In this document: positions 25,989 to 61,908 of the stretch, one piece after another
How positions within the stretch are numbered: the first letter of the stretch is position 1
Layout: each line of letters begins with the position of its first letter
Origin: an uncultured Candidatus Saccharibacteria bacterium
GTDB taxonomy: Bacteria > Patescibacteriota > UBA1384 > XYA2-FULL-43-10 > 1-14-0-10-43-13
Direction of reading: 5' to 3'
NCBI GenBank assembly: GCA_964529405.1
Contig: CAZGWE010000005.1
Span: 1 to 62,128, forward strand
Length of the DNA stretch: 62,128 bases
Notes under the pieces: model-generated
Databases searched by the model: none
The model's input: the letters and a program-made list of their open reading frames with translations, nothing else
What the model was told of the DNA's origin: nothing
Made by a program: the position numbers and the translations under genes

Positions 25989-26762
25989 CTATTCCACCTC
26001 CAGCCCCCTAGACTGTACCCAAACCGACTCAAAAAACACTTGCATCGTTTGATAAAAACTAGTACTCGTAATAATCATTGCGTAAGGCTTCTCTTTTGTT
26101 TGAGAAAAAATAGCCACTTTATCATCATAGATGTGAATATGGCTCTCGGGTACGAACCACTCCGGAGCAATCCTAATCTGCCTGTTATCATCAGTCTCAG
26201 GCTTATATCGCCTGTAACCTGTTTTTTTATACTCTTCATTATCAGTCGCCAATCTTAAAGACCTATATACAATCTGGTGTTTTTTCGTTTCATCTAAATA
26301 GTTCGCAATAAATTCGTCACCCACGTGGCTGTGTCCAGATGCTCGAACGGGTATGGCATCAACTTTTTTACCAGTTGATTCCAGGGAGAGACGAAAAACT
26401 TCTTTGATACCCTCAACGCCCTCGAACATCTCCACCGCCGGCTTACCCTCCTCCTGTTTGTAAAGCGAGAAGAGGGCAGGAACGGCGTGTTCGATCGTAG
26501 CCAGCCTTGCCCGCATTATCTCTTGGAGTCGCGCCGGCGAAGCGGCAATGTAGTATTGATGCCTGTTTCGCTCAGTAATACTAATTAAACCAAGTCGGCG
26601 AAAATCATCCAGATAATTGTAAACAGTAGTCCTCTTAATACCGGCCCGCTGTGCAATCGGAATAATACTAGATTCCCCCAACTCCAACATAGCCAGATAT
26701 ACTTTGGCTTCTTTTTCGGTTAATCCGGCTTCTTTTAAAGATGTAAGTAAAGTGTTGTCCAT
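25989..26762 (-). CDS. TrmB-family transcriptional regulator (paralogue 1)
   Basis: LKEAGLTEKEAKVYLAMLELGESSIIPIAQRAGIKRTTVYNYLDDFRRLGLI wHTH. C-terminal domain ends ...FFESVW. Confidence 0.8.
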   Translation of the reverse strand: MDNTLLTSLKEAGLTEKEAKVYLAMLELGESSIIPIAQRAGIKRTTVYNYLDDFRRLGLISITERNRHQYYIAASPARLQEIMRARLATIEHAVPALFSLYKQEEGKPAVEMFEGVEGIKEVFRLSLESTGKKVDAIPVRASGHSHVGDEFIANYLDETKKHQIVYRSLRLATDNEEYKKTGYRRYKPETDDNRQIRIAPEWFVPESHIHIYDDKVAIFSQTKEKPYAMIITSTSFYQTMQVFFESVWVQSRGLEVE

Positions 26763-26848
26763 GTGTTTGTTTTGTCTATATTTCTAGACACATTCTAGCA
26801 CTTACTGATCATTTAGTCAAGACTTTAGCCATTTTTATGTCTAAACTA

Positions 26849-26877
26849 TTGACATATTACCGCTTACATGCTATAAT
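26849..26877 (+). promoter_or_regulatory. Conserved consensus promoter, copy A
   Basis: TTGACA-17 nt-TATAAT with extended -10 (TGCTATAAT), followed by GGCAAGTCACGATGAG. Confidence 0.75.
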
Positions 26878-26900
26878 GGCAAGTCACGATGAGAATTTGA

Positions 26901-26948
26901 TTGTCATCCTCGGGCAGCACGCCAGCAGGCGGCATGACCCGGGGATCC
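26901..26948. repeat. Hairpin element inserted in the cargo-A leader
   Basis: ttgtcatcctcgggcagcacgccagcaggcggcatgacccggggatcc. It sits between the TCAC and GTGA halves of the leader stem. Confidence 0.7.
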
Positions 26949-27119
26949 AGTTACTCTCAAAGTGAAGCAAGTGGCAACGGTCCTTCTCCTGGATCAGCCG
27001 GCAGCAAGCTGGCCCTGGGGGGAGAAGCTAGATGAGGTAGAGAGATTCACGCCATCAAAAACGCCAACCGAGGGCATAAGGCACAGGTTGGAATCACGAT
27101 CAGAAAGAGAAACAGAAAA

Positions 27120-27404
27120 ATGGACAAGATCAAGCTAGTTGCTGCAATGAAAAAAATCGGAGGCTACAAAGCCATCCTAATCGACAAAGACGGGGCCAAA
27201 ACCCAGGTGATGATGGGTAGATGGAGCAATCGTCTTAGTGTCGATGGGCACATTATCAAAGATCTGCCCGAGTTTGACACCGTCCGGCTTTTTGACGGGT
27301 GGTATGACTGCCACACAGCAGAATGGACAGCGGAGGAAGTAGAACAACATTGGGATGGGCTACCGAAATACCTGCGTGAAAACGCAAAGGTGAATGGCTG
27401 GTAG
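27120..27404 (+). CDS. Hypothetical small W-rich protein (cargo A1)
   Basis: 94 aa, G+C-rich, downstream of promoter A and its leader. Confidence 0.5.
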   Translation: MDKIKLVAAMKKIGGYKAILIDKDGAKTQVMMGRWSNRLSVDGHIIKDLPEFDTVRLFDGWYDCHTAEWTAEEVEQHWDGLPKYLRENAKVNGW

Positions 27405-27537
27405 CAGCTCTTCCATCCTCCTCCCCGCCTAGTACCCACCAACTTACGCCCCTCAGACAGTGATCATTACCTTAACAGGTAATGATCTCCTCCGAGGGAA
27501 TCATTCCCTTGCACACAGACACGAAAGGAAAACAAAA

Positions 27538-27801
27538 ATGACCGCAACCATACTGATCCGCGCTATGAAAATGTTCGGTGCCAGGTATTGCCATCTGGTG
27601 GAAATTGATGGAAAAACAAGGGAAGAGTATGGGTTGGACTGGACAGGAGCGCTAGTAAGCCTACTTGGAAAAGGCACGCTTAGCGAGGGAGACGAGATCC
27701 CTCGGTATCCAATTGTAAAATTGTTCGGAGTGTCATTCCCTTATGGGGAGATCTGGCTATATGAGCAAGTAGAGGCACGAGCTCTAGAATCTTCCATGTA
27801 A
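27538..27801 (+). CDS. Hypothetical small protein (cargo A2, possible paralogue of A1)
   Basis: ATG 27538 after gaaaggaaaac. AMKMFGARYCHLVEIDGKT resembles AMKKIGGYKAILIDKDGAKT of A1. Confidence 0.45.
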   Translation: MTATILIRAMKMFGARYCHLVEIDGKTREEYGLDWTGALVSLLGKGTLSEGDEIPRYPIVKLFGVSFPYGEIWLYEQVEARALESSM

Positions 27802-28584: not shown

Positions 28585-29349
28585 CTATCTTATCTCCTTC
28601 GGCTTCTTGGCAATCTCCCAAAGCAAATTAAACCTCTGCCGTTCGTCATATGCCAAGGCCGAACTTTCGATTACTGTGGCAAATGGATTACTTTCCGAGT
28701 GGGCGATATTGGCAATCGAATCGCCAAAGATAAAAGTGATTGTCCTGGGATCAAATTCCGGTCCTGGCACCAATCTTGTCTCCCGCAATTCGGGATCATC
28801 ATTTGATGCCAGTTCGCGATTAGGTTTATTATTTTCAAAAATAGCCCGGGCAAAAATTTTCTTCTTAGCCCGTTCGGCGATGAAAATTTTAAAATATTCC
28901 GAATAAGCAGTCTCGATCATATTTGTGCCAATAATCAATAATTCGCTGCCCTCCGGCTGATTCAGAACTAAGTTAAAGACCTGTTCTACGCCATGAGCAC
29001 CTTCATAAAGGCGTATTTTAGGTTTCTGGGCAGATTTACTACTTAAGGCGTCAAACTGAGCCAAACTTTGGCTAAACTGTTTTTTGCGCTGGTCAAAAGC
29101 CGCCAACAATTCTCGGGGATTTACAACCGAGTAGATCGTCCGCTTATTATCATTGGTTTTACTGGCATATCCCATTGACAATAAATCGTCGAGCACAACG
29201 TAACAGGTTGGCCGCTTTACGCCGCATTTTTGAGCAATGTCCCAAATAGAACTCGGCCCCAACTCCAAACAAGCCAAATAAACCTTGGCCTCATTTTCGC
29301 CCAAGCCGATCATGTTTAACGTTTGAATTAAATCTGTGTTTTGAGTCAT
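28585..29349 (-). CDS. TrmB-family transcriptional regulator (paralogue 2)
   Basis: LNMIGLGENEAKVYLACLELGPSSIWDIAQKCGVKRPTCYVVLDDLLSMGY. Confidence 0.8.
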   Translation of the reverse strand: MTQNTDLIQTLNMIGLGENEAKVYLACLELGPSSIWDIAQKCGVKRPTCYVVLDDLLSMGYASKTNDNKRTIYSVVNPRELLAAFDQRKKQFSQSLAQFDALSSKSAQKPKIRLYEGAHGVEQVFNLVLNQPEGSELLIIGTNMIETAYSEYFKIFIAERAKKKIFARAIFENNKPNRELASNDDPELRETRLVPGPEFDPRTITFIFGDSIANIAHSESNPFATVIESSALAYDERQRFNLLWEIAKKPKEIR

Positions 29350-29786
29350 CTGGTCCTCCCCTTGAAGCAGGGGAAGTTAGTGGGGGTATGGCCCCTCCCC
29401 CTAGTGTAAGGGGAGCTGGAGGGGGTATTCTCCCCCAACTCATTCGCGATTTTTTCCACTACCCCCTCTAAATTTTCGGTCACTTCTTTGTTTGTAAATC
29501 TAAGAACTATTATGTCCAGTCCACTCAACACTGTATCCCTTTCCCGGTCTTTTATTCTGCCACTCTCGGAATAATGCGAATCCCCATCGATCTCTATAGC
29601 CAAACGCTTGTTTGGGCAATAAAAATCAACAATAAAACTGTCAATGCTATACTGGCGACGAAACTTATATCCATTTAATTGACAATTCCTGATCTTCTGC
29701 CAAAGCTTTCTCTCCGGTTCCGTCATGTTGCCGCGTAGTATCTTGCGTTTTTCCTTTAGAATTTCCTTGTTGTAAGTTTGATCCAT
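29346..29786 (-). CDS. DUF559 (Vsr/MutH-like endonuclease fold) protein
   Basis: RGNMTEPERKLWQKIRNCQLNGYKFRRQYSIDSFIVDFYCPNKRLAIEIDGDSHY. The C-terminal 30 aa are translated from a hairpin repeat. Confidence 0.75.
   Translation of the reverse strand: MDQTYNKEILKEKRKILRGNMTEPERKLWQKIRNCQLNGYKFRRQYSIDSFIVDFYCPNKRLAIEIDGDSHYSESGRIKDRERDTVLSGLDIIVLRFTNKEVTENLEGVVEKIANELGENTPSSSPYTRGRGHTPTNFPCFKGRTR
29352..29386. repeat. Hairpin repeat flanking the DUF559 gene (left)
   Basis: ggtcctccccttgaagcaggggaagttagtggggg. Its reverse complement matches 29881-29914 with 2 mismatches in the core. Confidence 0.75.
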
Positions 29787-29880
29787 TTTGTCCTCGATGA
29801 GCCTACCCTCTACTGGTTCTCCTCCTAAGGTAGGAGGAGTCAGAGAAGGTATTTTATTTATTTCTACAATGCTCTCCTAC

Positions 29881-29914
29881 CTCCTCTAACTCCCCCTGCT
29901 TCAGGGGGAGGACC
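29881..29914. repeat. Hairpin repeat flanking the DUF559 gene (right)
   Basis: ctcctctaactccccctgcttcagggggaggacc. Confidence 0.75.
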
Positions 29915-30039
29915 TGTAGTCATATTTATTGACACTAATATATCACACTACTTGTCTGATTGTCAATAGTATGGTTATCTTACGATTGATATTAATACTA
30001 TTATATATGAACTGATAAATATTATTACTGTCATATCTA

Positions 30040-30068
30040 TTGACAAAAGACTTATCATATGCTATAAT
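30040..30068 (+). promoter_or_regulatory. Conserved consensus promoter, copy B
   Basis: TTGACA-17 nt-TATAAT (TGCTATAAT), followed by GGCCTGTTCACGATGAG. Confidence 0.75.
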
Positions 30069-30161
30069 GGCCTGTTCACGATGAGGAAGCGGTCACCCGC
30101 CAATCACCGTGAAAGCAAATAGCAATCACGCCATCAACAACGCTGGACGAAAGGCAAGAAG

Positions 30162-30617
30162 ATGAACTTCAATAACAAAACGATGGGGATTTTGGTTGTT
30201 GATTTGTCCTGCTGGTGCGACGAGATCGGATTCATACAATGCCGGATTGATGAAATAGCCAATCGTGTAAGAGAATTCAGAGCCGTCTACGGCCACAATA
30301 TCGATGACGAAGGGAACGATGAGTGGACACTCGTTTCAGTTAAGTGGTTCCCTCGCTGGTGTGATAACCTTCGCCCACTAGTTTTCTACATCAACAAGAC
30401 CAAGACTGGTGACCCAAGAGATTATTACAGGATCCACAAAGAAAACGGCGAGATTATCTGGGAAACAAGCCCTGGTGACCTGGCCGGTCCACGTTCTGAA
30501 TTTTATTTTGTTGAGTGGGCCGTCAAAGTCCACGAGTCCCGAATTGAGGAAGAGATCTTAGAAGTCTCGCTCGAGGAACTGAAAGACTGGGTGATACTCA
30601 GTCTGGGTGGTGTTTAA
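30162..30617 (+). CDS. Hypothetical W/C-rich protein (cargo B1)
   Basis: 151 aa, G+C-rich, downstream of promoter B. Confidence 0.5.
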   Translation: MNFNNKTMGILVVDLSCWCDEIGFIQCRIDEIANRVREFRAVYGHNIDDEGNDEWTLVSVKWFPRWCDNLRPLVFYINKTKTGDPRDYYRIHKENGEIIWETSPGDLAGPRSEFYFVEWAVKVHESRIEEEILEVSLEELKDWVILSLGGV

Positions 30618-30700: not shown

Positions 30701-31054
30701 ATGCGATACATGACATGGAAGATATGCATGGTCAGGATCGTAAAGCCGAATCCCAAGAACGCTCCCCTGGCCATCGCGGTTCGATCGGCCATCCTACGAT
30801 ACGACGAAAACGAGTGCAAAGCATCGTTCGACAGCTTTGAGCTTACGCTGGACGACAACTCAGAATACGCCAATTGGTGTAACGAATGGCGCATGAAGTT
30901 GTCCGGCAAGCTCGATCTCGGAGCCGACGCGTCAAACGAATACGGCAGGTTCGTTTCGCTGACCGACGAGGCGGGCAAGATCGAGGTAGAATGCTTCTAC
31001 CACGAACCGCCGCGTTTCTTCAAGAAAGACGGCACCGACATCACCCCCGTCTAA
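30701..31054 (+). CDS. Hypothetical protein (cargo B2)
   Basis: 117 aa, SD gagaggaagaaagATG. Confidence 0.5.
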   Translation: MRYMTWKICMVRIVKPNPKNAPLAIAVRSAILRYDENECKASFDSFELTLDDNSEYANWCNEWRMKLSGKLDLGADASNEYGRFVSLTDEAGKIEVECFYHEPPRFFKKDGTDITPV

Positions 31055-31108: not shown

Positions 31109-31121
31109 TCTATTCATCTTG

Positions 31122-31197
31122 TTGACAAGATTGTTGACAAGATTTTATTTCTACTTGACAAGATTGTTGACAAGATATATAATTTACATGACAAGAT
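31122..31197 (+). promoter_or_regulatory. Iterated TTGACAAGAT operator-like array overlapping a consensus promoter
   Basis: Five copies, at 31122, 31134, 31155, 31167 and 31188 (ATGACAAGAT). TTGACA 31155 -17 nt- TATAAT 31178. Confidence 0.7.
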
Positions 31198-31211
31198 TAA
31201 CGAAAGAGTAT

Positions 31212-32243
31212 ATGAATTTAGAAGAGAAAATAATCGAAATTGCCAGCAAGAAAAAGAAATTTAAAACCTCCGACATAGTCAAAGGACTGGGGGGTTCATT
31301 TTCGCGACAGTATATTAGCACAATAATTAATAATATGGCCAAAAAAGGGTTGCTGCTTCGTACCGGCAAAACAACTGGCACGTTCTATGCCCTGCCCGAG
31401 TACTCCGACTTTCTTCTCAACGGACACATAATGAAGAAATTTAAAAACGATGGGCTTAAGGAGCATGAAGTACTGCAAGAGATAGAGAGCCGGGCCACTT
31501 ATATCACAAAGCTAAAAGACAATGTTAGAAGTATTTTTACGTATGCTTTTTCTGAAATGCTTAATAATGCAATTGAGCACTCTAAGTCACCAGAAGCTCA
31601 AATTGAAGTTAGCCAAAACAAAGAAAGTTTTTCATTCATTGTTAAAGATACCGGCATTGGAGTATTTAAAAACATTATGCAAAAACGACACTTGAGTTCC
31701 GAGCTGGAAGCAATTCAGGACTTGCTTAAAGGCAAAACAACAACCGCTCCACATGCCCACTCCGGCGAAGGAATTTTTTTCACATCCAAAGCGGCTGATA
31801 TTTTCGTGTTGGAAAGTTTTGGCCACAGGCTAAGAATCGACAATATTATTAACGACATATTCGTTGAAGAACTTAAACCAAAAATGAAAGGTACCAAGGT
31901 TTTATTTTATATTAATCTCAATTCAAAAAGACACTTGAGCGATATATTCAAAGCTTATCAAACCGACCCAGAAGAGTACGCTTTTGATAAGACTGAGGTT
32001 AAAATAAGACTCTATACCATGGGCACCGTCTATATCTCCCGTTCGCAAGCCAGACGTGTGCTCTCTGGACTCGAAAAATTCAAGCATATAGTTATGGATT
32101 TCGACAAAGTCCCAACAGTCGGCCAAGCCTTCGCCGATGAGGTTTTCCGCGTCTTCAAAATCAAACACCCGGAAATCGTGATAGAACCAGTAAATATGAA
32201 TGAAACAACAGCTTTCATGGTTGGCAGAGTTGAGAAAGTTTAA
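31212..32243 (+). CDS. wHTH + GHKL ATPase (RsbW-like) + DUF4325 (STAS-like) fusion protein
   Basis: N-box SEMLNNAIEHS, G1 KDTGIGV, G2 SGEGIFF. C-terminal SRSQARRVLSGLEKFKHIVMDFDKVPTVGQAFADEVF resembles DUF4325. ATG 31212 follows gaaagag; the track start at 31119 translates the operator array. Confidence 0.7.
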   Translation: MNLEEKIIEIASKKKKFKTSDIVKGLGGSFSRQYISTIINNMAKKGLLLRTGKTTGTFYALPEYSDFLLNGHIMKKFKNDGLKEHEVLQEIESRATYITKLKDNVRSIFTYAFSEMLNNAIEHSKSPEAQIEVSQNKESFSFIVKDTGIGVFKNIMQKRHLSSELEAIQDLLKGKTTTAPHAHSGEGIFFTSKAADIFVLESFGHRLRIDNIINDIFVEELKPKMKGTKVLFYINLNSKRHLSDIFKAYQTDPEEYAFDKTEVKIRLYTMGTVYISRSQARRVLSGLEKFKHIVMDFDKVPTVGQAFADEVFRVFKIKHPEIVIEPVNMNETTAFMVGRVEKV

Positions 32244-32296: not shown

Positions 32297-32313
32297 CATT
32301 CACAATAATATTT

Positions 32314-32357
32314 AAATTCCAGATATAGTACGCGATCGCTGTGTATATCTGGAATTT
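32314..32357. repeat. Palindromic element with GCGATCGC core
   Basis: aaattccagatata-gtacgcgatcgctgtg-tatatctggaattt. Related to 41320-41359. Confidence 0.8.
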
Positions 32358-32361
32358 GACA

Positions 32362-39737: not shown

Positions 39738-39782
39738 AAAGTTCACTAACGCTTTGTGCTAATTAATATCTAACTCTATATA

Positions 39783-39903
39783 AATAATCTGTCATTTCGA
39801 CACCATTCGAGTCTGCTCGAAGGCGAGAAATCTACAAATTAATGAGCCAGAGTAAGCGGTAGATTTCTCGTCCCGATCGGAATCGGGATGTCAAAATGAC
39901 ATA
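39783..39903. repeat. Complete GTCATTTCGAC...GAAATCT hairpin element
   Basis: tgtcatttcgacaccattcgagtc...cgagaaatctac pairs with gtagatttctcgtcc...gtcaaaatgaca. The first 66 nt are identical to 42231-42296. Confidence 0.85.
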
Positions 39904-39971: not shown

Positions 39972-40673
39972 TTACCTTCCTGTATATTTCTTAGCGTAAA
40001 TCCTCACCAAAAAAATCAGCTCGGATAATAATTTTTCCTTAACCCAAGCTTTTTGCTTCAGTTCGAGCAGTTCGCCCAAACCGTGCAGAATGTTAATTTT
40101 GTCCAACTTTTCCAGTTTGCCGGCTAAATCATCTAAAAACTCGCCCGTACCCATGCCGGTTTTTTCTTTGATCACTTTTTCGTCGATGGACCAATCGTTC
40201 TTGAGCATAAAATGAGCATCAAAAAGATCGCGGTTAGCAAAGCGCTTACGATTAAAAATGGCAATTAATTTATTAGCCAGCATGAATTCTTTCTTGGCAA
40301 TCAGCATGCTCAAACCATAATAGTTCTTAACCTCGTAGTTCTCCCTGCTGCCGGTCAGGCGCGAGATTTCAACCTTGACATTTTGTCTTTCCGACTCGTA
40401 ACTCAAACGCCAAAACAAGGTAAAATGCTTTATCCGGCTGTCTTTTACTTGGCCAAACTCCGGCAGTATCCGATCGATTTTCTTGAAAACCTCTGCGCCC
40501 TGATCATTCTCAAGCAGATCAAAGTCCAAATCAACCGAAAAACGAGGCAAATCGTAAAAAAGGTAGCAGGCCGTACCGCCCTTAAAACCCAAAAGAGGCG
40601 CCAGTTTATTGTCGCCATACAAAGCAAGTAAAATCTTATTCATTACCACATCGTGATCACCCCTATGAAGCAT
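39972..40673 (-). CDS. AbiEii/AbiGii-family nucleotidyltransferase toxin
   Basis: FKGGTACYLFYDLPRFSVDLDFDL motif, 233 aa. Confidence 0.8.
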   Translation of the reverse strand: MLHRGDHDVVMNKILLALYGDNKLAPLLGFKGGTACYLFYDLPRFSVDLDFDLLENDQGAEVFKKIDRILPEFGQVKDSRIKHFTLFWRLSYESERQNVKVEISRLTGSRENYEVKNYYGLSMLIAKKEFMLANKLIAIFNRKRFANRDLFDAHFMLKNDWSIDEKVIKEKTGMGTGEFLDDLAGKLEKLDKINILHGLGELLELKQKAWVKEKLLSELIFLVRIYAKKYTGR

Positions 40674-41238: not shown

Positions 41239-41319
41239 AATGTTATTTAAAAGTGATCAAAAATGATTACTTTTAATATACATTAACTAACACTCGTTGT
41301 CAAGTCAAAACAGCAATAT

Positions 41320-41359: not shown

Positions 41360-41440
41360 TTGAACGCAAAAAAACATCCCAAAACAAAAGAAAAAACCGC
41401 CGTGCCGAGGTGGCCGTGCGGTATAGGAATTGGAAAGCGT

Positions 41441-51167: not shown

Positions 51168-51232
51168 TTTCATTTTCTCCTCCCCTTTTGAAGGGGAGGC
51201 GTAGGTGGGGTTACAAAATAGTCCCAAAAAGG

Positions 51233-51271
51233 TTGTCATCCCGGACTGTGGTGTTGAGATCCGGGATCCAC
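51233..51271. repeat. Hairpin element (TTGTCATCC...GGGATCCAC family)
   Basis: ttgtcatcccggactgtggtgttgagatccgggatccac. Confidence 0.75.
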
Positions 51272-51363
51272 TCCTTATTGTGTCGTTGCGAGCATATCGA
51301 AGCAATCTATCAGGATTAGTTCGTAGATTTCTCATTTCATTCGAAATGACTTTTTATTTTCAA

Positions 51364-51462: not shown

Positions 51463-52113
51463 TTACCTGCTCTCCTCGTAGAGATGATCCATGTAGCTCC
51501 GCTTCATACCGACAATCTCGCTGAGGTCTGTATCCTTAGTAATGACCTGGTAGCCAGTGCTATCATCACCCACCCGATCTTCGTCCAGGAAGACAAGTCC
51601 GTAGTGCGAAAGGTTATAGGTATAGCAGACTGTCTTACCCTCGCTGGTTTGTGATTCGGTGTAAGTGATGAACAGGTGGCCACAATCGTCTTCCTTGTCC
51701 CAAGTCTGGCGTAGCTCAGCCACGAGAACCTCCAGGATTGTCATGCAAGTACGAGGAAAGACTCGTAACCAGGAACAACGATCCTCACTCTTCAGTTCTC
51801 GTTGCCTAGGCTGAGCATAGCTGAAAGTCTTGGTCCGGCGGGCCTTGATCGCATAGGACTCCTCAGTCGTCCTAGACATCTCGATAGAATCGAGATCCTT
51901 GAGCTCACTGAAGGCGCCGTAAACCCGCCTTATCTCGCACCACACCTGGGAAATCTTCACTCCCTTGGGAATGAAGAAGTACCAGTCATAGCCATCGAGT
52001 TCGGGCAGGTGCTTGAACTTGACCTCAACTTCCGCTGAGTCAACTTCAATACCCATGTGCGCCCAGAATTCGATATTCGCTTTGATCTCGCTCTCAACCG
52101 TTCTGACCTGCAC
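51463..52113 (-). CDS. Hypothetical W/C-rich protein (cargo D)
   Basis: G+C-rich. GTG 52113 follows gggagagaaaag. The track start at 52203 lies inside the conserved leader (CGTGAAAG). Confidence 0.5.
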   Translation of the reverse strand: MQVRTVESEIKANIEFWAHMGIEVDSAEVEVKFKHLPELDGYDWYFFIPKGVKISQVWCEIRRVYGAFSELKDLDSIEMSRTTEESYAIKARRTKTFSYAQPRQRELKSEDRCSWLRVFPRTCMTILEVLVAELRQTWDKEDDCGHLFITYTESQTSEGKTVCYTYNLSHYGLVFLDEDRVGDDSTGYQVITKDTDLSEIVGMKRSYMDHLYEESR

Positions 52114-52241
52114 CTTTTCTCTCCCTATCGGAATCGAGCTATCCAGCCTGCACCCTTGCGAGCCTCGGCTGGCGTTTTTGATGGCGTTTCCGTGCTCTTT
52201 CACGCTGATTGCGCTAAGCGCTTATTCATCGTGAACAGGCC

Positions 52242-52271
52242 ATTATAGCACTTCTTTTTCCGCTTTGTCAA
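52242..52271 (-). promoter_or_regulatory. Conserved consensus promoter, copy D
   Basis: Minus strand: TTGACA-18 nt-TATAAT (TGCTATAAT), followed by GGCCTGTTCACGATGAA. Confidence 0.7.
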
Positions 52272-52483
52272 TACCTTTCCACAGTTTATTGCTCTATTAG
52301 TCTTGCTGTTATCATAGCTATTGACAGGTTAATATATAAAGGTATATAATACAACTGTCGAAATATTTCCACACAGTATTAAGTCGGAGAGTATGAAAGT
52401 ACTAAGTGTGAAAGTCAGATCGAATTCTGTGCCTCACTCTCCGACTCTCTAACTCTCACCCTCTCACACTAATTAGGAGTCAT

Positions 52484-53257
52484 ATGAACACCGACCTATT
52501 AAAACAATTTGGTCTGTCGGCAAAAGAAGCTAGCATTTATTTGTCTTTGTTAGAGCTTGGAGCATCATCGGTCTCACAAATCGCCGTCAAAGCAAAAATT
52601 AACCGCACCACTGCATACGATATTTTGGAGGCACTGGTTCAATACGGCTTGGTAAGCTATGTCAAAGAGGAGACCAAAAAGCATTATGTGGCTGAAAACC
52701 CTGAGGCATTGGTCGGCTATTTAGAGAAAAAGGGCAGAGCATTGATTTCAAAGGCTTCTGAGGCCAAGAAAATATTACCGGAACTTAAAAGTGTCTATAA
52801 CTTAATCCCACATAAACCAAAGGTTAAATATTATGACGGCGAAGACGGTATTATCGCCATGTATGAAGATTCCCTTACTTCAAGATCAGAGATTTTGTCA
52901 TGGTTAGATCCAGAACGTACAGCCGACTTTTCAGAAGATTATTTTAGTCAATATTATAAACGCCGTGCTGAAAAAGGCATTCACATTAAAGCTATAGTTA
53001 ACGATGTGCCAATCTCGCACGAAATCAACTCACGCAACAAAGCAGAGGATAGAGAGATGAAAATAATCCCCCGCCAGATGATGGATATTGTGCCTGAGTG
53101 CTACGTATATGATGACAAAGTTGCCTTTATGTCCCTTCGTGAAAAGTTTGGCGTTATGATCGAATCCAAAGACATCGCCAAAGCCCTCCGCAAGCTTTAT
53201 GAACTCGCTTGGAAGCATGCGGGGGAAATTGATAAAGCAAGTCAGCGGAACAGCTAG
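52484..53257 (+). CDS. TrmB-family transcriptional regulator (paralogue 4)
   Basis: LKQFGLSAKEASIYLSLLELGASSVSQIAVKAKINRTTAYDILEALVQYGLV. Confidence 0.85.
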   Translation: MNTDLLKQFGLSAKEASIYLSLLELGASSVSQIAVKAKINRTTAYDILEALVQYGLVSYVKEETKKHYVAENPEALVGYLEKKGRALISKASEAKKILPELKSVYNLIPHKPKVKYYDGEDGIIAMYEDSLTSRSEILSWLDPERTADFSEDYFSQYYKRRAEKGIHIKAIVNDVPISHEINSRNKAEDREMKIIPRQMMDIVPECYVYDDKVAFMSLREKFGVMIESKDIAKALRKLYELAWKHAGEIDKASQRNS

Positions 53258-53432: not shown

Positions 53433-54527
53433 TCATGGCACCCTCGCCTCCTTCTTGAGCCGGCTGCGAACAGCCTTCATAAGGTTAGCTTGGGTGCCGG
53501 CAGTGGCTCGCGTGATGCAGCGTATGCACGAGCCATCTGCCTCCCGGCAATGGCGCCAACTCGCCTGGATGATCAGGCGGTGAAAATGGCGCAAATCCTC
53601 GACGGTCATGGCCTTAATGTTGGGCATCAACCCGGTGGGGCCGGATTTATAGCCGCAGAGCATCATTAGGCCATCTGTGTCCATTGCCACCCCGCGATAG
53701 CCGTAGCTGCACTTGCCTGTTCGCAAGGAGCTTTGACCGCCAGTGTCAGAGTAGGTTTTGACCAAGGTATCCAGCCGAGCTTGATCGATAGCATTGCCGA
53801 CCCGCTCGAGCCAGACTCGTTCCCTGGCCACTTTCCCCTCAGGCATGACACAGTTTGAAATGAAGAGCAGGCCGTTGCTGTGAGCGAAAGCCTTGGCAAC
53901 CTCGACACCACTCTCGTTGAGCAGGGTGACAGTGAAGTTCACCCCGATCCGAGTGATCTCTCGGTTGCCAATGACCTCGTTTGGCCCATAAACAGCCCGA
54001 AGCAGTCTCAGGTTCTCGATGACCCTGAAGATATCACCATTGCCGGTTGAGCGGCGGTAAATCTCAGGGTCAAGTGAATGCAGGCTGATGAAAATCGAAA
54101 CCCCGTGGTCTCGCAAGAATTCAGCCTGTTCCTGGCTCAGAAAGTTCAGGGTAGTGAACATAATAGTTCCCATTCCCAAACTATGAGCCTGTTCGAGAAC
54201 CGGGCGTACCAACTCACAAAACCCAGGTCGGCCATCGGGCGGTTGCCACAAAGGCTCACCGTCACCGATAATCACGATGGTTTGAGCGCCTGCCTCATGC
54301 GCCTTGACAATCTGCTCGTTGCGCTCCTCGGGCGACAAAACCGGCTTACCGAGGCAAGCCCAGTTGATGCCGCCGCCAGAGCCCAGCGCGCAGATGGCGC
54401 AGCAATGCGGACAACTCGTCGGAATGTTAACTGTAAAGAAAGTTAAGCCTTCTTCATCTGGTGCAATCTCGCCTTTCAAACTGGCGACCAGCTCCAGATA
54501 GTCAAGCGACCCCCTCAGTGTCTTCAT
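53433..54527 (-). CDS. Radical SAM protein with C-terminal Cys cluster (SPASM/twitch-like) (cargo F)
   Basis: CPHCCAIC (C-x3-C-x2-C), IIGDGEPL, C-terminal HCREADGSCIRC. G+C-rich. Confidence 0.7.
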   Translation of the reverse strand: MKTLRGSLDYLELVASLKGEIAPDEEGLTFFTVNIPTSCPHCCAICALGSGGGINWACLGKPVLSPEERNEQIVKAHEAGAQTIVIIGDGEPLWQPPDGRPGFCELVRPVLEQAHSLGMGTIMFTTLNFLSQEQAEFLRDHGVSIFISLHSLDPEIYRRSTGNGDIFRVIENLRLLRAVYGPNEVIGNREITRIGVNFTVTLLNESGVEVAKAFAHSNGLLFISNCVMPEGKVARERVWLERVGNAIDQARLDTLVKTYSDTGGQSSLRTGKCSYGYRGVAMDTDGLMMLCGYKSGPTGLMPNIKAMTVEDLRHFHRLIIQASWRHCREADGSCIRCITRATAGTQANLMKAVRSRLKKEARVP

Positions 54528-54613
54528 ATTCTGTTCTCCCCTTGAATGTACCAGCCACCATTCTGGCGTGATGGCTCAACGCCGTTCAACCCGACTCCGG
54601 ATTGTAACTTGCT

Positions 54614-54642
54614 ATTCTAGCATTAAATTGCTGAAATGTCAA
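54614..54642 (-). promoter_or_regulatory. Conserved promoter, copy F (diverged)
   Basis: Minus strand: TTGACA-17 nt-TAGAAT (TGCTAGAAT), followed by AGCAAGTTACAAT. Confidence 0.6.
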
Positions 54643-54717
54643 CACTATCAATACAAAATGTTGTACAATTTTCCCAACATCTTGACATTTAGAATCGGAT
54701 AGCGTAATATATTTTGT

Positions 54718-55488
54718 ATGAATGACCAATACAAAAGTGAGGAACTGGAAAAAGAACTGCTTGACTATGGCCTCACCAGCAAACAAGCGCGAGTCTATTT
54801 AGCTTTGTTGCAGTTAGGCACTTCTAATATCCAAGCTATTGCCGAGAAGGCGCGCGTTGAGAGAACAAATACTTATGATGCCGTTCAAGGATTGATTGAT
54901 CGCCGGCTGATCAGCATCACTACGCAAGGCAAAAAACGGCTATTTGTGGCTGAGCCGCCCGAATCGTTAGAGGTCATCATCAAAGAAAAGGCAAAGAAAC
55001 TTAAAGACCTTTTGCCTGAACTCAGATCGCTCCATAATATTTCCGAATTCAAGCCCAAAATCCGCTTTTATCCAGGAGTTGAGGGTTACAAAGCAGTTTA
55101 TGAGGATACCCTCTCCGCTTCAAGCAAGTTGCTCTTTGGCATATACTCCAGCCAAGATATTATCGATGTTTTGGGCATGGACTTTATTCGCCACATAATT
55201 GAGCAGCGGGTAGAAAAGAAAATCACTCTCCGCGTTATTCGACCCAGAGAGACAGAGGTACCCGGTCTTTGGCCGGCCGGCGAAGAAGCACTAAGGGAAG
55301 TAAAACTAGCCCCCAAGGGAATGGTTTTCCCGATTGTAACCTTTGTTTACGACAACAAAGTCATCTATCTCTCATCAAAAAAAGAGACCTTTGGTCTCAT
55401 TATTGAAAGCCATGACATGGCCCAGGCTCATCAGAACTATTTTGAGGCTCTGTGGCAGATTAGTACGGAGATGCCGATAGTAAAATAA
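54718..55488 (+). CDS. TrmB-family transcriptional regulator (paralogue 5)
   Basis: LLDYGLTSKQARVYLALLQLGTSNIQAIAEKARVERTNTYDAVQGLIDRRLI. Ends YFEALWQIS. Confidence 0.85.
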   Translation: MNDQYKSEELEKELLDYGLTSKQARVYLALLQLGTSNIQAIAEKARVERTNTYDAVQGLIDRRLISITTQGKKRLFVAEPPESLEVIIKEKAKKLKDLLPELRSLHNISEFKPKIRFYPGVEGYKAVYEDTLSASSKLLFGIYSSQDIIDVLGMDFIRHIIEQRVEKKITLRVIRPRETEVPGLWPAGEEALREVKLAPKGMVFPIVTFVYDNKVIYLSSKKETFGLIIESHDMAQAHQNYFEALWQISTEMPIVK

Positions 55489-58042: not shown

Positions 58043-59023
58043 TCAGTCCTGAAGAATGTTGATGATTAATTTGATGATATTATCTTTTTCTTTGGGGTTA
58101 CTGCTGGCTACCAGCAACGCCAGCGCGATGATGGAGTTGTCATTCAGTTTGAGCTCGCCGTTGGCGCGATAGAGAAATTCATTGCGATTCAAAAAGTGCA
58201 GAAAGAGCATCGAACCGATGCGTTTGTTACCATCGGCAAAAGGGTGGTCTTTGATCGTCAAATAGAGCAAATTGGCCGCTTTTTCCTCGACACTGGGATA
58301 GAGATCTTGGCCGTCAAAAGTTTGGTTAATACAACCAAGTACGCTTTTTAATTTAAAACCGACCTCACAGCCAAACAAATCGCCGGCGATACCGAATTTC
58401 GATAGCTCCTGCCGCATCTCCTCAACTAACTTTTTTGATCGAGTGTATTCAAATTCATACTGAATTTGATGATTTAGCTTGGCAATCTCCAAACTATTAG
58501 CATCAAACTCATCGAGTACTCTCCAAGACTTGGCGTATTCAGTAATAATTTGCAGTAACTCTTTCTCTTTGCCTATCAACTCCTCCACGTTAGATTTCTC
58601 GCCGATCATCAGAATCGTACTCTTGATCTCCTCCAGGCGTTTGTTTTGCTCTCGTAGCAATTTTTCATTGATAGCGTAACCTTTAAGCAAGTAGCTTTTT
58701 AGAGTTTTAGTTGCCCAGATTCTGAACTGCGTCGCTTTTTGGGAGTTGACCCTGTAACCAACTGAGATAATCATATCCAAATTGAACACTTCTGTTATTC
58801 TTTTTACTTCCCGGGAACCCTCTTTTTGAACTGTTTCCATTTTGGAACAAGTTGCTTCAGAATTCAATTCTTTGGTACGTAGAATATTTTTGACGTGTTT
58901 CGAAACAGCCGGCACTTGCACATCAAAAAAGTCCTCAATCTGCTTTTGCGACAGCCATATTGACTCATCTTTGACGCGAGCTTCGATATAAACCTCGCCC
59001 TGGGGCGGAAGTATAAATAACAA
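58043..59023 (-). CDS. RhuM-like N-domain fused to a Fic/DOC domain
   Basis: [29 protein letters not shown] (RhuM-like). Fic motif [11 protein letters not shown]. Confidence 0.8.
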
Positions 59024-59208
59024 CTTGATTCTCTTCTATATTCCCCTCCTTGGTTATATTAAGGAAAGTATACCGAACATAGGCCAAACATGTCAAACAA
59101 ATTGTCAATTGCCGCTAGCGAATATTTAGCACCAACAGGAATCTAAAGCCAATCCCAGATGTCCACCAGCTGGCGGATCGAAAAACATCCTCCAGGTTTG
59201 GAAAGACA

Positions 59209-59499
59209 TTATTCGCTTTCTTGCATGTATTCGACAACAATATTAATGATTTTCTGAACATTTTCATTACAAGATTTAAAAAGCAAACGGTCCAACACAT
59301 CATCGCCATATTTTCGAATCAGATCACTGATTAGCGCATGAACAAACGACTGTGTAGCCGCATCAATGTTTTCAAAATCCAAAACTATTTCTTGTTTATC
59401 CTCTAAGGCTGGGACGATCTCCTTTGATCTGATCTCTTTGGCGATGTCTTTATTCTCGGCAAATACGCCAACCCTCTTGAACAACTTGATCACTTTCAT
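59209..59499 (-). CDS. DUF4325 (STAS-like) protein
   Basis: 96 aa. EIVLDFENIDAATQSFVHALISDL resembles the DUF4325 pattern. 4-nt overlap with the upstream ATPase. Confidence 0.65.
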   Translation of the reverse strand: MKVIKLFKRVGVFAENKDIAKEIRSKEIVPALEDKQEIVLDFENIDAATQSFVHALISDLIRKYGDDVLDRLLFKSCNENVQKIINIVVEYMQESE

Positions 59500-60449
59500 A
59501 TAAATCTCGCTTTCTTGTAGCCAGTCCCCTTCCTTTCCCTAACAGTTTTGATATAGACGTCTCGAATTAAATCCAAGAGGGCGGAGAATTCCTTAGTTTC
59601 GTCCAAAGAGATGTCAATCCCAACTACGGTCCCTTGCCAATACGGGAAATCGTCGTCTTTCGAGTGCCTATCACGGAACGGATCTGCATATAATCTATCC
59701 GAGGTGCCCTTGAGCAGCTTATACATAGCATTGCCACTGTAAATCATAAAGAAATTGCGTTTGACTTTGGCAATCGATTTAATGAAAAACAAACCCGCCC
59801 CGGCATTATATTCAGTACCCCCCTCCCTGCTTGTCGTGCCGGTGATGCCAGGCGTCAACGCTAATTGAATCGCCTCTATATCAGTATTAGCAACATGAGA
59901 ATGGTTAATTGTTTTTTTGATCCCCACGCCTCTATCAGCGATACCAATCCTGATCATATTACTTTTTTTATGATATTGGGCTGAGACAATTGAGCCTTGC
60001 CGAGAATCAGCGTGCTCAAGCACATTTCTGACCAACTCGCTCACAACATACCGAATAGAATCGACTTGGTGAGGGCTCAGATGTAACAAGGGAATCATCT
60101 CTGTAATAAAATCCGTCAGCTCTTCTGAATCTTTGATCGTCGTTAAGGGTATAAATCGCCCAGCAGATTCGTGCTCAGTTATTTTAATGCCAGAATCGAT
60201 ATTTAAAAATTTGAACAACCCCATCCGCTCCAGATAATGAGCAGATTTTGCCGTTGGCGTTTCAAATACTATTTTCTTGGGATCCAAAGAAAGTCCAATT
60301 GCTGCAACCATTGACAAAACAACCGGATGGACCGATATCCAGGATTGATTAGCTGTGACCTCCAACTTTTCCGGCTCTCGCGGATCGATTTCTCGCAGAA
60401 AAGGATCTATGTTGCCGATAAAAGCACTGTTAGGAATATGGACTTTCAT
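59496..60449 (-). CDS. GHKL-superfamily ATPase (RsbW/anti-sigma-kinase-like) with novel N-domain
   Basis: N-box SELVRNVLEHA, G1 ADRGVGI, G2 NAGAGLFF. No SD; the ATG lies 6 nt after the -10. Confidence 0.7.
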   Translation of the reverse strand: MKVHIPNSAFIGNIDPFLREIDPREPEKLEVTANQSWISVHPVVLSMVAAIGLSLDPKKIVFETPTAKSAHYLERMGLFKFLNIDSGIKITEHESAGRFIPLTTIKDSEELTDFITEMIPLLHLSPHQVDSIRYVVSELVRNVLEHADSRQGSIVSAQYHKKSNMIRIGIADRGVGIKKTINHSHVANTDIEAIQLALTPGITGTTSREGGTEYNAGAGLFFIKSIAKVKRNFFMIYSGNAMYKLLKGTSDRLYADPFRDRHSKDDDFPYWQGTVVGIDISLDETKEFSALLDLIRDVYIKTVRERKGTGYKKARFI

Positions 60450-60455
60450 GCCTAC

Positions 60456-60502
60456 ATTTTACCGGGAATGCCGGTATTTTGTCAATACCCCGGGATTCCC
60501 GG
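60456..60502 (-). promoter_or_regulatory. Promoter with palindromic operators for the GHKL-DUF4325 operon (leaderless)
   Basis: Minus strand: TTGACA (60485-60480) -18 nt- TAAAAT (60461-60456), then gtaggcATG. Palindromes TACCGG-N5-CCGGTA (60460-60476) and CCGGGA-T-TCCCGG (60490-60502). Confidence 0.6.
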
Positions 60503-60539
60503 TGTTCTATATGATCATTCGCAATCCCGGTAATAGCCA

Positions 60540-61322
60540 TTACAACCGATCCCAGATGAATTCGAAGTACTTCTGCCAGGTTTGGGCTATGACGGTGCTT
60601 TCTGTGATTGAAAAGAAGAGAGTGCGGGAGTCGTAGAGAATGATGTGATTTTTAGTTATAACGACTGAGCCTGGGTTAGCGTATTTGTCATCGATGAATT
60701 TGATCTCAGATCGAGGCAGGTTATAACGTGTCACGATGTATGGGTCGCCCGCATTGCCATCTCCGGGTAATTTTTGTGATTTGGGCAAAATTGTGCGCAA
60801 ATGGAGACCTAACTGCTCCTTGGGCGGAGAAAAGTACATAAACGCATCACCCGCTGAAGTTATCTTTCTAAACGAAGCCCCAAATATACAAATGTTATTG
60901 TCGGGTGTCTGCAGGGTCTTAAACAGCTCGTAAGTACGATCATAAAATTTGTTAACTTCTTCCTCGCCCTGAAAATACTCAACAATCGATTTGCTAGTCT
61001 CGCGTGAAAAGTGTTCCTGAAGTTTGGGAAGGATTTTGTTCAAGTCTCTCTCTTTTTGCTTGACCATAAGCTTCAAGTTCTCAGGATCTGAGGGTAAATA
61101 AATGGTCCTCTTGCCGCGTGAGGCGGTTTTTAGCAAGCCATCGCGTAAAAGTTTATCGATGTGATAATAAATGCCGGTACGCTCGATCTCGCCATTCTCA
61201 GCGATCTCGCTCACCGTACCGCCGCCAAGATCTATGGCAGATAAATAAATAAGCGCCTCTTTTTGGCTCAAACCCAGATTTATAAGAGCATCAAGCTCAA
61301 TTTTTGTGTTAAACTTTTTCAC
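60540..61322 (-). CDS. TrmB-family transcriptional regulator (paralogue 6)
   Basis: LINLGLSQKEALIYLSAIDLGGGTVSEIAENGEIERTGIYYHIDKLLRDGLL. Ends YFEFIWDRL. Confidence 0.85.
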   Translation of the reverse strand: MKKFNTKIELDALINLGLSQKEALIYLSAIDLGGGTVSEIAENGEIERTGIYYHIDKLLRDGLLKTASRGKRTIYLPSDPENLKLMVKQKERDLNKILPKLQEHFSRETSKSIVEYFQGEEEVNKFYDRTYELFKTLQTPDNNICIFGASFRKITSAGDAFMYFSPPKEQLGLHLRTILPKSQKLPGDGNAGDPYIVTRYNLPRSEIKFIDDKYANPGSVVITKNHIILYDSRTLFFSITESTVIAQTWQKYFEFIWDRL

Positions 61323-61382
61323 ACTTACATATTACATCAAGCCTAGACATCTGTCAAATATGTTTTAATTCGTTAAACTGAT

Positions 61383-61411
61383 TGACATATTAAGCATTTA
61401 GTGCTATAATG
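61383..61411 (+). promoter_or_regulatory. Conserved consensus promoter, copy C
   Basis: TTGACA-17 nt-TATAAT (TGCTATAAT), followed by GGCGTGTTCACGATTGG. Confidence 0.75.
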
Positions 61412-61485
61412 GCGTGTTCACGATTGGAAAGAGCTTCGAGTTCAACTAAGCGTGAAGATCGACCAACACAAGGAGGCATTACACA

Positions 61486-61908
61486 ATGCTATTCGATCAG
61501 AAAACCGTAGCAGGCTATCATTTGCTCGGCCCTACGGCCCAGCACATCCTGCAAGTTGCATTTGAGAACGCCAGACCCACCAATGACGGTCTGATCGTGG
61601 ACGGCCTTGATGGGATCTTGCGCGCAACCGGGAAGGTGGCCGCAACCACCATCAACCGTCTCGAGAAACGGGGGTACTTGGTACCCATCGGCGAGATTCC
61701 GACAGCCAAGGGCGGTCGAGCGAGGAAACGCCACAAGCTGGTTCTTGATCCACCGATCACCGAATACCAGCCCCTGAATGGCCCAGGTACGGGCCAGCTC
61801 GTCCTCACCTTCCGTCACAAGGACGAAGTCAGAACCTTTGTCATCGACCATAGCCTCCGTCTCTCTATTAAGACTGAGGAGTTCAGTATCGAGATCGCCG
61901 AGGAGTGA
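61486..61908 (+). CDS. Hypothetical protein, possible wHTH (cargo C)
   Basis: 140 aa, G+C-rich, SD aaggagg. TTINRLEKRGYLVPIGE resembles a winged-helix recognition region (weak). Confidence 0.5.
   Translation: MLFDQKTVAGYHLLGPTAQHILQVAFENARPTNDGLIVDGLDGILRATGKVAATTINRLEKRGYLVPIGEIPTAKGGRARKRHKLVLDPPITEYQPLNGPGTGQLVLTFRHKDEVRTFVIDHSLRLSIKTEEFSIEIAEE

Follow-up and report, generated by a model that had tools for sequence, protein, structure and literature searches.

The closest described relatives of the regulators considered here belong to the TrmB family, in which a sugar-binding subdomain is the feature that divides TrmB from TrmBL2 (PMC4158304); TrmBL2 (TK0471/PF0496) is a chromosomal (chromatin) protein and a global repressor (PMC3031468, PMC4158304). 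We analyzed a 62,128-nt stretch of contig CAZGWE010000005.1 from an uncultured Candidatus Saccharibacteria bacterium (the whole stretch is called the window below), in which six TrmB-type genes face away from genes of other kinds, here called cargo. In five of these modules (A, B, C, D, and F) the cargo is preceded by a copy of the same consensus promoter and leader, together called the platform; the sixth module is E. The arrangement is probably a divergent repressor/target switch on the TrmB family, the unusual parts of which are the standardised platform and the class of cargo. CPR (candidate phyla radiation)/Patescibacteria account for a large part of bacterial diversity, and to our knowledge very little work deals with transcription regulation in these organisms. 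No published description of the layout was found in the literature on TrmB with Patescibacteria, candidate phyla radiation or Saccharibacteria, nor more broadly, which bears out the statement of a first-pass annotation of this DNA that it knew of no such system.

The resemblance to TrmBL2 extends to size (~250-260 aa), to the TrmB winged helix-turn-helix (wHTH) with its recognition tyrosine, to the coiled-coil helix and phospholipase D (PLD)-like domain, to the missing sugar-binding subdomain and probably to function as a repressor; TrmBL2 is also the best full-length structural match of one of the six proteins, TrmB-D (PMC4158304, PMC3031468). The proteins described here are, however, bacterial, are ~17-19% identical to TrmBL2 over the structural alignment, and occur as at least six divergent paralogues per genome rather than as one abundant protein. 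Moreover, in groups D, F, and C a footprint of their own and a cognate operon suggest local control, not genome-wide coating. With TrmB and TrmBL1 (Tgr) of Thermococcales they share the PF01978 domain, the N-terminal effector part, predicted binding at or near the core promoter and TCAC/GTGA half-sites, whereas they lack PF11495 and the C-terminal sugar-binding barrel, their targets are not sugar-metabolism genes, and their promoters are of the sigma70 type. Back-to-back promoters, a short control region, and autoregulation with target repression, probably from one operator region, also recall TetR-tetA type switches; here, in contrast, one regulator family is multiplied within a genome, its members would have operators of their own, a single promoter/leader cassette is reused, and the targets are unrelated ORFans.

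We favor, with moderate confidence, the reading that these loci are self-contained switch modules of Berkelbacteria-like CPR bacteria. A TrmBL2-type protein (winged helix, coiled-coil helix, PLD-like domain) would be made from its own consensus promoter and would bind a paralogue-specific palindromic operator, either in the 24-73 bp between the promoters or over a -35 element, and thereby repress its own transcription and that of the divergent operon of cargo genes. The cargo side would act as a standardised high-output platform (consensus -35, 17/18-bp spacer, TGCTATAAT -10, G-rich discriminator), and the stem-loop with which the transcript is predicted to open (UUCACG...CGUGAA, then AAAG) would most likely shield the 5′ end and stabilise the mRNA. 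Concerted evolution would keep the platform alike within a genome while regulators and operators diverged. The cargo itself would consist of fast-evolving, persistently G+C-rich accessory genes that are silent until a signal frees the repressor; most are ORFans, and the types that recur are radical SAM enzymes, REC-like proteins, winged-helix-like proteins, and look-alikes of RNA-polymerase domains. The module would be a recognisable and testable regulatory unit, dominant in one CPR clade, in which an archaeal-type TrmBL2 fold has been expanded as locus-specific switches.

A bolder version, which we regard as doubtful, is a 'plug-and-play' system in which promoter and leader are copied between loci of one genome by gene conversion and a partly exchangeable, rapidly evolving, persistently G+C-rich pool of genes is deployed, each unit with its TrmBL2-derived repressor; that this pool takes in radical SAM/RiPP-like enzymes (RiPP, ribosomally synthesized and post-translationally modified peptide) and decoys of RNA-polymerase domains (tandem alpha C-terminal domain [alpha-CTD], sigma region 4) is to be held with the same reserve. 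If true, it would be a platform for gene capture and deployment, integron-like but with one repressor per cassette, that could serve symbiont-host or phage interactions of bacteria with such reduced genomes, and selection (for stability or structure of the mRNA) or biased gene conversion, not inheritance from a donor, would account for the G+C excess.

TrmB-type regulators and their divergent promoters

The six open reading frames (ORFs) that the first-pass annotation had assigned to the TrmB type all matched the Pfam family PF01978, with E-values from 5.5e-16 to 6.5e-9 and bit scores of 36-58.6, where the gathering threshold is 25.6. They are TrmB-A (25989-26762, minus strand, 257 aa; PF01978 E 9e-14), TrmB-B (28585-29349, minus, 254 aa; 3.4e-14), TrmB-E (42432-43166, plus, 244 aa; 5.5e-9), TrmB-D (52484-53257, plus, 257 aa; 5.5e-16), TrmB-F (54718-55488, plus, 256 aa; 4.2e-13), and TrmB-C (60540-61322, minus, 260 aa; 6.5e-9). 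When a TrmB profile built from 49 family members was searched against all six-frame ORFs of the window, exactly these six were returned (TrmB-A with E 1.1e-69). The paralogues are mutually 21-33% identical (21-29% to the first sequence when aligned end to end) and share a tryptophan motif at the C-terminus. A tyrosine of the recognition helix is invariant in the six paralogues and in the 49 family members, and corresponds to the conserved DNA-contacting Y50 of Pfu TrmB (PMC4158304). The residue that follows it varies (D/N/V/R/Y), and the variable positions of the recognition helix differ between paralogues.

The AlphaFold2 (AF2) model of TrmB-D, with a predicted local distance difference test (pLDDT) score of 94, was found to consist of the wHTH, a 30-residue helix and an alpha/beta domain, and ends after the PLD-like domain. 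In a Foldseek search of the PDB, ranks 1-8 were all TrmBL2 (256-269 aligned columns, E 1e-13 to 4e-12), and proteins of the PLD fold were the next matches, for the C-terminal domain. The sequence profile of the family reached TrmB 3qph (1e-6) and TrmBL2 (4e-4). No match to PF11495, the sugar-binding effector domain that includes the beta-barrel subdomain, and no match to the WYL domain was obtained in Pfam searches of the six regulators (244-260 aa). The modelled paralogue thus matches the TrmBL2 type, without the sugar-binding subdomain.

A pattern scan of the window for TTGACA-N13-16-TGCTANAAT returned five copies (26849+, 30040+, 61382+, 52271-, and 54642-), while shuffled sequence gave an expectation of 0.00. 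Each is a consensus extended -10 sigma70 promoter (TTGACA-17/18-TGCTAnAAT), and all five fire away from a TrmB gene. They comprise a consensus -35, a 17/18-bp spacer, the extended -10 (TGCTATAAT) and a G-rich discriminator, and lie at 26849-26877 (A, plus strand, TTGACA-17-TGCTATAAT), 30040-30068 (B, plus), 52242-52271 (D, minus, TTGACA-18-TGCTATAAT), 54614-54642 (F, minus, TTGACA-17-TGCTAGAAT), and 61382-61410 (C, plus). Modules B, C, and D share a longer block, TGCTATAATGGCNNGTTCACGAT, without any difference; the copy at A carries a 1-nt deletion, and that at F is more diverged. The claim that every regulator is divergent from this conserved promoter therefore held for five modules but failed for E, where the presumed degenerate copy at 42130-42175 turned out to be a weaker promoter slightly to the side (42100-42128, minus, TTGAAA-17-TTAAAT) with a short leader without hairpin.

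On the other side of the intergenic regions, near-consensus promoters face outward toward the TrmB genes, with 24-73 bp from -35 to -35 in the five modules. These promoters were located at 26792-26820 (TrmB-A, minus, TTGACT-17-TAGAAT with TG; its -35 is 28 bp from that of the cargo), 29937-29966 (TrmB-B transcript, minus), 52321-52350 (TrmB-D, plus, TTGACA-18-TATAAT), 54682-54710 (TrmB-F, plus, TTGACA-17-TAATAT), and 61329-61357 (TrmB-C, minus, TTGACA-17-TAATAT). The promoter of TrmB-B is separated from its gene by an inserted DUF559 gene (29346-29786). We also surveyed related loci (denoted by L numbers), which had been reached through TrmB or cargo homologues. The window and the non-redundant related loci together (186 kb) contain 25 strong extended -10 promoters, of which 16 point away from a TrmB gene; among the remaining nine, five (window 29966-, L011 3939+, L012 1049+, L014 691-, and L015 6431-) face a TrmB gene and resemble its own promoter.

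Conserved candidate operators lie in the common region between these back-to-back promoters in groups D, F, and C. In group D, TGTGGAAATATTTCGACA directly 3′ of the TrmB -10 and TGTGGAAAGGTATTGACA on the cargo -35 are both kept in seven to nine loci. In the window, candidate site 1 (TGTGGAAAGGTATTGACA, 52266-52283, minus) overlaps the cargo -35 and is kept across orthologous loci (alignment of seven) and in L023, and candidate site 2, the near-palindrome TGTCGAAATATTTCCACA, lies just 3′ of the TrmB-D -10 (52356-52373). The putative TrmB-F operator is an inverted repeat, CAAGATGTTG-N11-CAACATTTTG, between the two -35 elements (54654-54684) and nearly invariant in four genomes; that of TrmB-C is a 25-nt block common to the window and L014, likewise between the two -35 elements (61352-61376). 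Orthologues of TrmB-A, -B, and -E were absent from the retrieved proteins, so that footprint groups are limited to D, F, and C. That each of these three groups has its own conserved footprint suggests site-specific local control, in contrast to the abundant TrmBL2, which binds DNA non-specifically and forms filaments.

The first-pass annotation had left open whether the regulators repress or activate. Because consensus promoters need no activator and the conserved sites lie on or beside -35 elements, autoregulated repression is the more fitting part of that proposal, and the activator part is not favored. A paralogue-specific autoregulated repressor is thus likely to control the common high-output promoter and leader. 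Experimental handles are offered by the reusable promoter/leader, which is expected to work in E. coli reporters, and by the putative operators, which three groups out of six have (D, F, and C).

The shared leader and its predicted fold

When the transcript start is taken to lie 5 nt after the -10, the transcripts of the five modules open with a predicted 5′ stem-loop (GTTCACGAT...CGTGAAAG). Leader A (26878-27119, plus strand) has an extended 5′ stem-loop (26884-26965; z -3.7), a second hairpin, and the element ACGCCATCAAAAACGC (27049-27064), and leader B (30069-30161, plus) has a 5′ stem-loop (30075-30113; 0 of 200 shuffles as good) followed by ACGCCATCAACAACGC (30128-30143). Leader D (52114-52241, minus) combines a 5′ stem-loop (52199-52235), ACGCCATCAAAAACGC (52172-52187), and a second hairpin; the stem-loops of leaders F (54528-54613, minus) and C (61411-61485, plus) were placed at 54584-54608 and 61417-61456, respectively. 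Of the 20 leaders folded (window and related loci together), 19 have their first paired base at nt 1-5 from the assumed 5′ end. The stem arms co-vary between genomes (UUCACG/CGUGAA, UCCACG/CGUGGA, CAACGAU/AUCGUUG, UUACGC/GCGUAA), the distance between them ranges from 6 nt in L002 to 74 nt in window module A, and the intervening sequence folds too. An A/C-rich, unstructured stretch comes after the hairpin, then in many cases another hairpin, and finally a good Shine-Dalgarno sequence. The 5′ arm, GUUCACGAUG, is also conserved in sequence across paralogous modules and genomes.

The repeat can also be read in DNA, as an operator TTCACG...CGTGAA 3′ of the -10 that is common to all TrmB paralogues, with the modules cross-regulated and the bound protein blocking RNA polymerase. 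The archaeal TrmB/TrmBL1 motif is TATCAC-N5-GTGATA, the core of archaeal TrmB-family motifs is TCAC/GTGA, and archaeal TrmB-family proteins repress when bound 3′ of the core promoter. The arms here do carry this core, their sequence as such is conserved across groups and genomes (ACGATG at about +8), and the recognition-helix tyrosine is the same in all paralogues. However, arm spacings of 6 to 74 nt are incompatible with a fixed dimer geometry, and the inner sequence forms nested helices with compensatory changes (GCGG/CCGC versus GCGC/GCGC). Proteins just 21-33% identical, with different residues at the variable positions of the recognition helix, are also poor candidates for one common site, and distinct paralogue-specific footprints lie upstream. 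Since co-varying arms, variable arm spacing and a folding inner sequence together favor RNA structure over a protein operator, we consider the shared operator unlikely and take a 5′ RNA stem-loop to be the most likely nature of the common leader.

Such a leader resembles the 5′ stabiliser stem-loops of ompA, ermC, and aprE, which likewise combine a stem-loop close to the 5′ end (here predicted at ~1-5 nt) with an unstructured segment and a Shine-Dalgarno sequence after it. It differs from them in that the 5′ arm GUUCACGAUG is conserved across modules and genomes, in that it belongs to no Rfam family, and in that its transcription start is an assumed one. At gathering thresholds Rfam returned only tRNAs in the window, and the leaders had no match at E<=5. 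A resemblance to a hammerhead core (GAUGAG...GAAA) was dropped, with no model match and no fitting helices. An upstream mini-ORF starting from the ATG in ACGATGAG was rejected as well: C, L002, and L014 have ATT or ATA instead of this start codon, lengths and sequences are unconserved, and a Shine-Dalgarno sequence is missing.

A second leader element, ACGCCATCAAnAACGC (ACGCCATCAANAACGC), occurs unaltered in leaders A, B, and D and nowhere else in the window (3 matches against 0.11 expected) and is confined to this genome among those compared. The platform of window module D is more similar to those of B (0.81) and C (0.76) than to those of orthologous D loci (0.60-0.68), which implies concerted evolution within the genome; the platform, on this comparison, probably evolves in concert.

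Cargo genes, their recurrence and their turnover

The cargo genes are mutually unrelated, as the first-pass annotation had claimed and an all-against-all comparison confirmed, and the two recognisable types that it had named were verified. Cargo E (41441-42070, minus strand, 209 aa) encodes two RNA polymerase alpha-CTD-like domains (PF03118 1.4e-24 in two stretches; C-terminal models of rpoA), and cargo F (53433-54527, minus, 364 aa) a radical SAM enzyme (PF04055 1.3e-13) with only six relatives in 5.8e9 proteins. The remaining cargo had no meaningful family match in Pfam, NCBIfam, PADLOC, or PHROGs. Module A drives two tryptophan-rich orphans, A1 (27120-27404, plus, 94 aa) and its weak paralogue A2 (27460-27801, plus; 28% identity), which probably starts at an internal ATG (...MTATILIRAM). 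Module B drives the orphans B1 (30162-30617, plus, 151 aa) and B2 (30701-31054, plus, 117 aa), the latter followed by a terminator-like hairpin. Cargo D (51463-52113, minus), a 216-aa ORFan followed by an intrinsic terminator, had no homologue in 5.8e9 proteins. Cargo C (61486-61908, plus, 140 aa), also followed by a terminator, had four credible small homologues among 1.8 billion representatives. The best Foldseek matches of its AF2 model (pLDDT 73) were winged-helix domains but were not significant (E>=0.27), so that a winged helix in its N-terminal half is only suggested. Genes as lineage-specific and, probably, as tightly controlled as these are natural candidates for functions in symbiosis, competition or defence.

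The cargo had been described as G+C-richer than the regulators. This is clear for cargo C (G+C 0.57), D (0.51), E (0.54), and F (0.56), with 0.60-0.67 at third codon positions (GC3; 0.64 for D), against 0.42-0.45 (GC3 0.44-0.51) for the TrmB genes, but cargo A and B are only slightly raised (0.46-0.49). Other genes of the window range from 0.37 to 0.53, save one 128-aa orphan (7783-8169, minus; G+C 0.56) with a good Shine-Dalgarno sequence, which lies 3′ of dnaB with no TrmB gene near; G+C-rich orphans are thus not exclusive to the modules. The cargo exceeded its regulator in all 21 pairs compared, which are phylogenetically non-independent; the mean difference is 0.10 over all positions and 0.155 at GC3.

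The layout was seen in most of the 17 other non-redundant CPR loci examined. TrmB-D orthologues (43-79% identity) are common in CPR metagenomes, and look-ups that started from the regulator (L002/L003, L006, L007, L008, L009 with two modules, L010, L012, and L023) showed the strong promoter, the 5′ hairpin leader and G+C-rich cargo without family match. Starting from the cargo provides an independent test of recurrence. Homologues of cargo C were found in L014, L015/L016, and L017 and those of radical SAM cargo F in L018-L020. All six contigs carried a divergent TrmB gene, which in the three F contexts was a TrmB-F orthologue. In L015, four TrmB genes lie within 10 kb, and a complete cargo operon diverges from three of them (G+C of cargo 0.55-0.58, of regulators 0.41-0.43). 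The exact promoter/leader motif had zero matches in GTDB representatives and one doubtful metagenome match (L001) without -35 and without TrmB gene; it is lineage-specific in its exact form, and looser versions were found only through protein-guided loci. A broad TrmB alignment was tried as a locus query and given up, as no stretch was conserved enough, and only D-type orthologues were retrievable. One locus, L010 (CAYHKX010000007.1), is labelled 'uncultured Gammaproteobacteria' and carries a typical module, with a TrmB-D relative (43% identity), a 5′ hairpin leader, and cargo rich in G+C; the contig is probably CPR DNA that was binned wrongly.

Recurrent cargo families in the all-against-all comparison were the C family, radical SAM enzymes (window F, L006, L021, and L023), REC-like proteins (L002, L007/8, and L015a), and secreted proteins. 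In L009 a stand-alone sigma70 region 4 protein (3069-3335, minus; Pfam 1.9e-8) is module cargo. Together with the tandem alpha-CTD protein (41441-42070) it may mimic RNA-polymerase domains or act as a decoy of them, and such stand-alone proteins suggest an unexplored mode of RNA polymerase modulation. In L021 (1445-4849, minus), a TrmB-D orthologue faces ORFs of 59 and 82 aa and then two radical SAM enzymes, one of them B12-binding, a layout that resembles a RiPP biosynthetic cluster.

Comparison of orthologous loci showed that turnover and stability both occur. At the D locus the window has an ORFan as cargo, L002 and L007 have REC-like proteins, L006 and L023 radical SAM enzymes, and L004, L009, L010, and L022 cargo of other kinds. 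In the sister loci L007 and L008 (TrmB 95% identical), genes have been inserted or deleted inside the operon, directly 3′ of a near-identical promoter and leader. The C and F pairs, in contrast, are stable: the orthologous regulator was paired with the same cargo family in every other context recovered (six contigs), and the cargo diverges faster than its regulator (40% versus 69% identity for C, where the regulator compared is that of L014; 49-66% versus 79-84% for F). For these pairs dS (synonymous divergence) is saturated, and no dN/dS (ratio of nonsynonymous to synonymous divergence) could be estimated. Cargo has thus changed at the D locus but not, in the contexts recovered, in the C and F pairs, and of the modular interpretation in the first-pass annotation, which is largely right, the paralogous regulators, common platform and unrelated cargo stand.

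That interpretation further held the cargo to be probably horizontally acquired, which in its sharpest form means recent import from a G+C-richer donor (phage, plasmid, host), with TrmBL2-like proteins silencing the imports. Cargo D, without any homologue, the differing cargo of the D locus and the gene gain and loss between L007 and L008 would fit such import, as would the role of TrmBL2 as global repressor and chromatin protein (PMC3031468, PMC4158304). The REC-like cargo of L007/L008 also has a dS of 0.22, compared with 1.18 for the adjacent TrmB gene; nucleotide identity between these loci, however, varies regionally from 81 to 93%, so the low value is not unique and is only a hint of exchange. 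Horizontal acquisition does not suit the co-inherited C and F pairs, in which the G+C contrast persists at 40-66% protein identity, where amelioration should have erased it. No candidate donor appeared in the searches run, and the recovered relatives of cargo C and F (six contigs) sit in TrmB modules. IMG/VR gave nothing in four protein scans (radical SAM, alpha-CTD protein, cargo C, and TrmB-D alignment) and one DNA-motif scan, the peptide-pattern scans being limited in sensitivity; the ORFs scanned between 25 and 62 kb include neither an integrase nor a transposase. Xenogeneic silencing by H-NS, Lsr2 or Rok acts on DNA that is A+T-richer than the genome, whereas here the cargo is the G+C-richer partner in 21 of 21 pairs. 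Recent import is in our view improbable. A G+C excess kept at deep divergence is not the signature of a fresh import and must be maintained: selection could act, for instance, on the structure or stability of the mRNA, or a local bias such as biased gene conversion could be at work. Its stability in genes inherited together with regulators of ordinary A+T content poses a question in genome evolution.

A shared 3′ cassette boundary, consisting of a hairpin and TCCGAGGGAA, was considered from L007/L008 and a single instance in module A and was rejected, as a single 9-mer match in the window is within chance. The combination lies between cargo genes in three genomes (window 27455-27500; L007 3300-3345; L008 842-880 and 1374-1410).

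The modules might instead be conflict systems (anti-phage defence, toxin, or effector) held by a dedicated regulator, like BrxR/CapW-type regulators; the first-pass annotation had suggested as much. Variable, fast-evolving, lineage-restricted cargo behind a conserved regulator family is what such a stable would look like, and the modules cluster in a region with AbiEi/AbiEii, Fic/RhuM, and DUF559 genes. A conserved regulator or platform with exchangeable cargo is equally a likeness to integron cassette arrays. PADLOC matched the radical SAM cargo weakly to pVip (E 8e-4) and the alpha-CTD cargo to a segment of PglW (E 1.8e-8), but these reflect generic radical-SAM and helix-hairpin-helix similarity and no defence-family match is convincing; PHROGs gave no meaningful match, and neither these nor the IMG/VR scans offer positive evidence for a stable of toxins or effectors. 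The regulators are without WYL domain, several cargo proteins resemble regulators or secreted proteins more than toxins, and, unlike BrxR/CapW systems and integrons, the modules showed no known defence genes, no integrase among the ORFs scanned, no attC sites and, in self-BLAST, no shared 3′ repeat, and pair each unit with its own promoter and repressor. We therefore think it quite unlikely that the modules are conflict systems. Regulators are commonly divergent from their targets, recurrence of consensus sigma70 hexamers is to be expected, and the TrmB genes have consensus promoters too, but that the shared sequence is merely the lineage's generic strong promoter and 5′ untranslated region is very hard to credit, as all five copies in 62 kb stand at TrmB genes and none before ~55 other genes of the window, similarity between copies reaches 50-85 nt past the hexamers and extends to a second leader element far above expectation, and cargo-first look-ups always recover a TrmB neighbour.

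Several observations weigh against the switch-module reading. Module E is without the shared platform. In 6 of the 20 leaders, at least 40 of 200 shuffles matched the hairpin, single leaders being often no better than shuffled sequence, and the hairpin arms hold TCAC/GTGA, which leaves some room for a role in DNA. That the regulators repress, that the footprints are operators, and that the hairpin is 5′-terminal are deductions from sequence, and the related loci, having been found through TrmB or cargo homologues, are phylogenetically non-independent. Finally, L004 has the promoter with an A+T-rich leader and little G+C contrast, and L021 and L022, from lower-G+C genomes, have neither strong promoter nor G+C contrast; these exceptions imply that the layout is clade-restricted.

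Neighbouring elements in the window

The window is chromosomal and belongs, by its closest protein relatives, to Patescibacteria near Candidatus Berkelbacteria. It also encodes DnaE, DnaB, DnaX, RecQ, NDK, and an MraY-like protein, and its module-rich region interleaves mobile- and defence-type genes with core replication genes; in L023 the TrmB-D module adjoins dnaX-dnaB. In 29346-29914, the start codon of TrmB-B is separated from its promoter by the DUF559/REase_MTES_1575 endonuclease gene (Pfam 1.8e-32), which is bracketed by inverted repeats of ~37 nt at 29352-29388 and 29878-29914 and looks like a selfish insertion into the TrmB-B leader; L002 has a DUF559 gene as well. Directly 3′ of cargo E is an AbiEi/AbiEii type IV toxin-antitoxin pair (39972-41359) with a promoter at 41275-41303 and a perfect 40-nt palindrome at 41320-41359. 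Between RecQ and TrmB-C (58043-60449, minus strand) lie a RhuM/Fic-domain ORF and a second HATPase-type ORF. The other ORF of the HATPase type (31119-32243) has HATPase_c and DUF4325/STAS-like domains and an N-terminal Penicillinase_R-like wHTH, and five direct copies of TTGACAAGAT upstream of it (31116-31200), iteron- or operator-like, overlap a promoter that matches the consensus at 12 of 12 positions.

Perfect or near-perfect palindromes of 40-46 nt were observed in intergenic positions at 24255-24300, 25054-25100, 32311-32359, and 41317-41363. Dispersed short repeats lie beside modules and gene ends, with 42196-42304 similar to 39749-39856 and 51226-51273 similar to 25939-25986, and further copies at 51300-51350 and 62005-62128. 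They are of two types, 'GTCATTTCGA...GAGAAATCT...' and 'GGATCCCGGATCTCA.CACC.CAGTC.GGGATGACAAC', and a like hairpin occurs in L007 (885-940).

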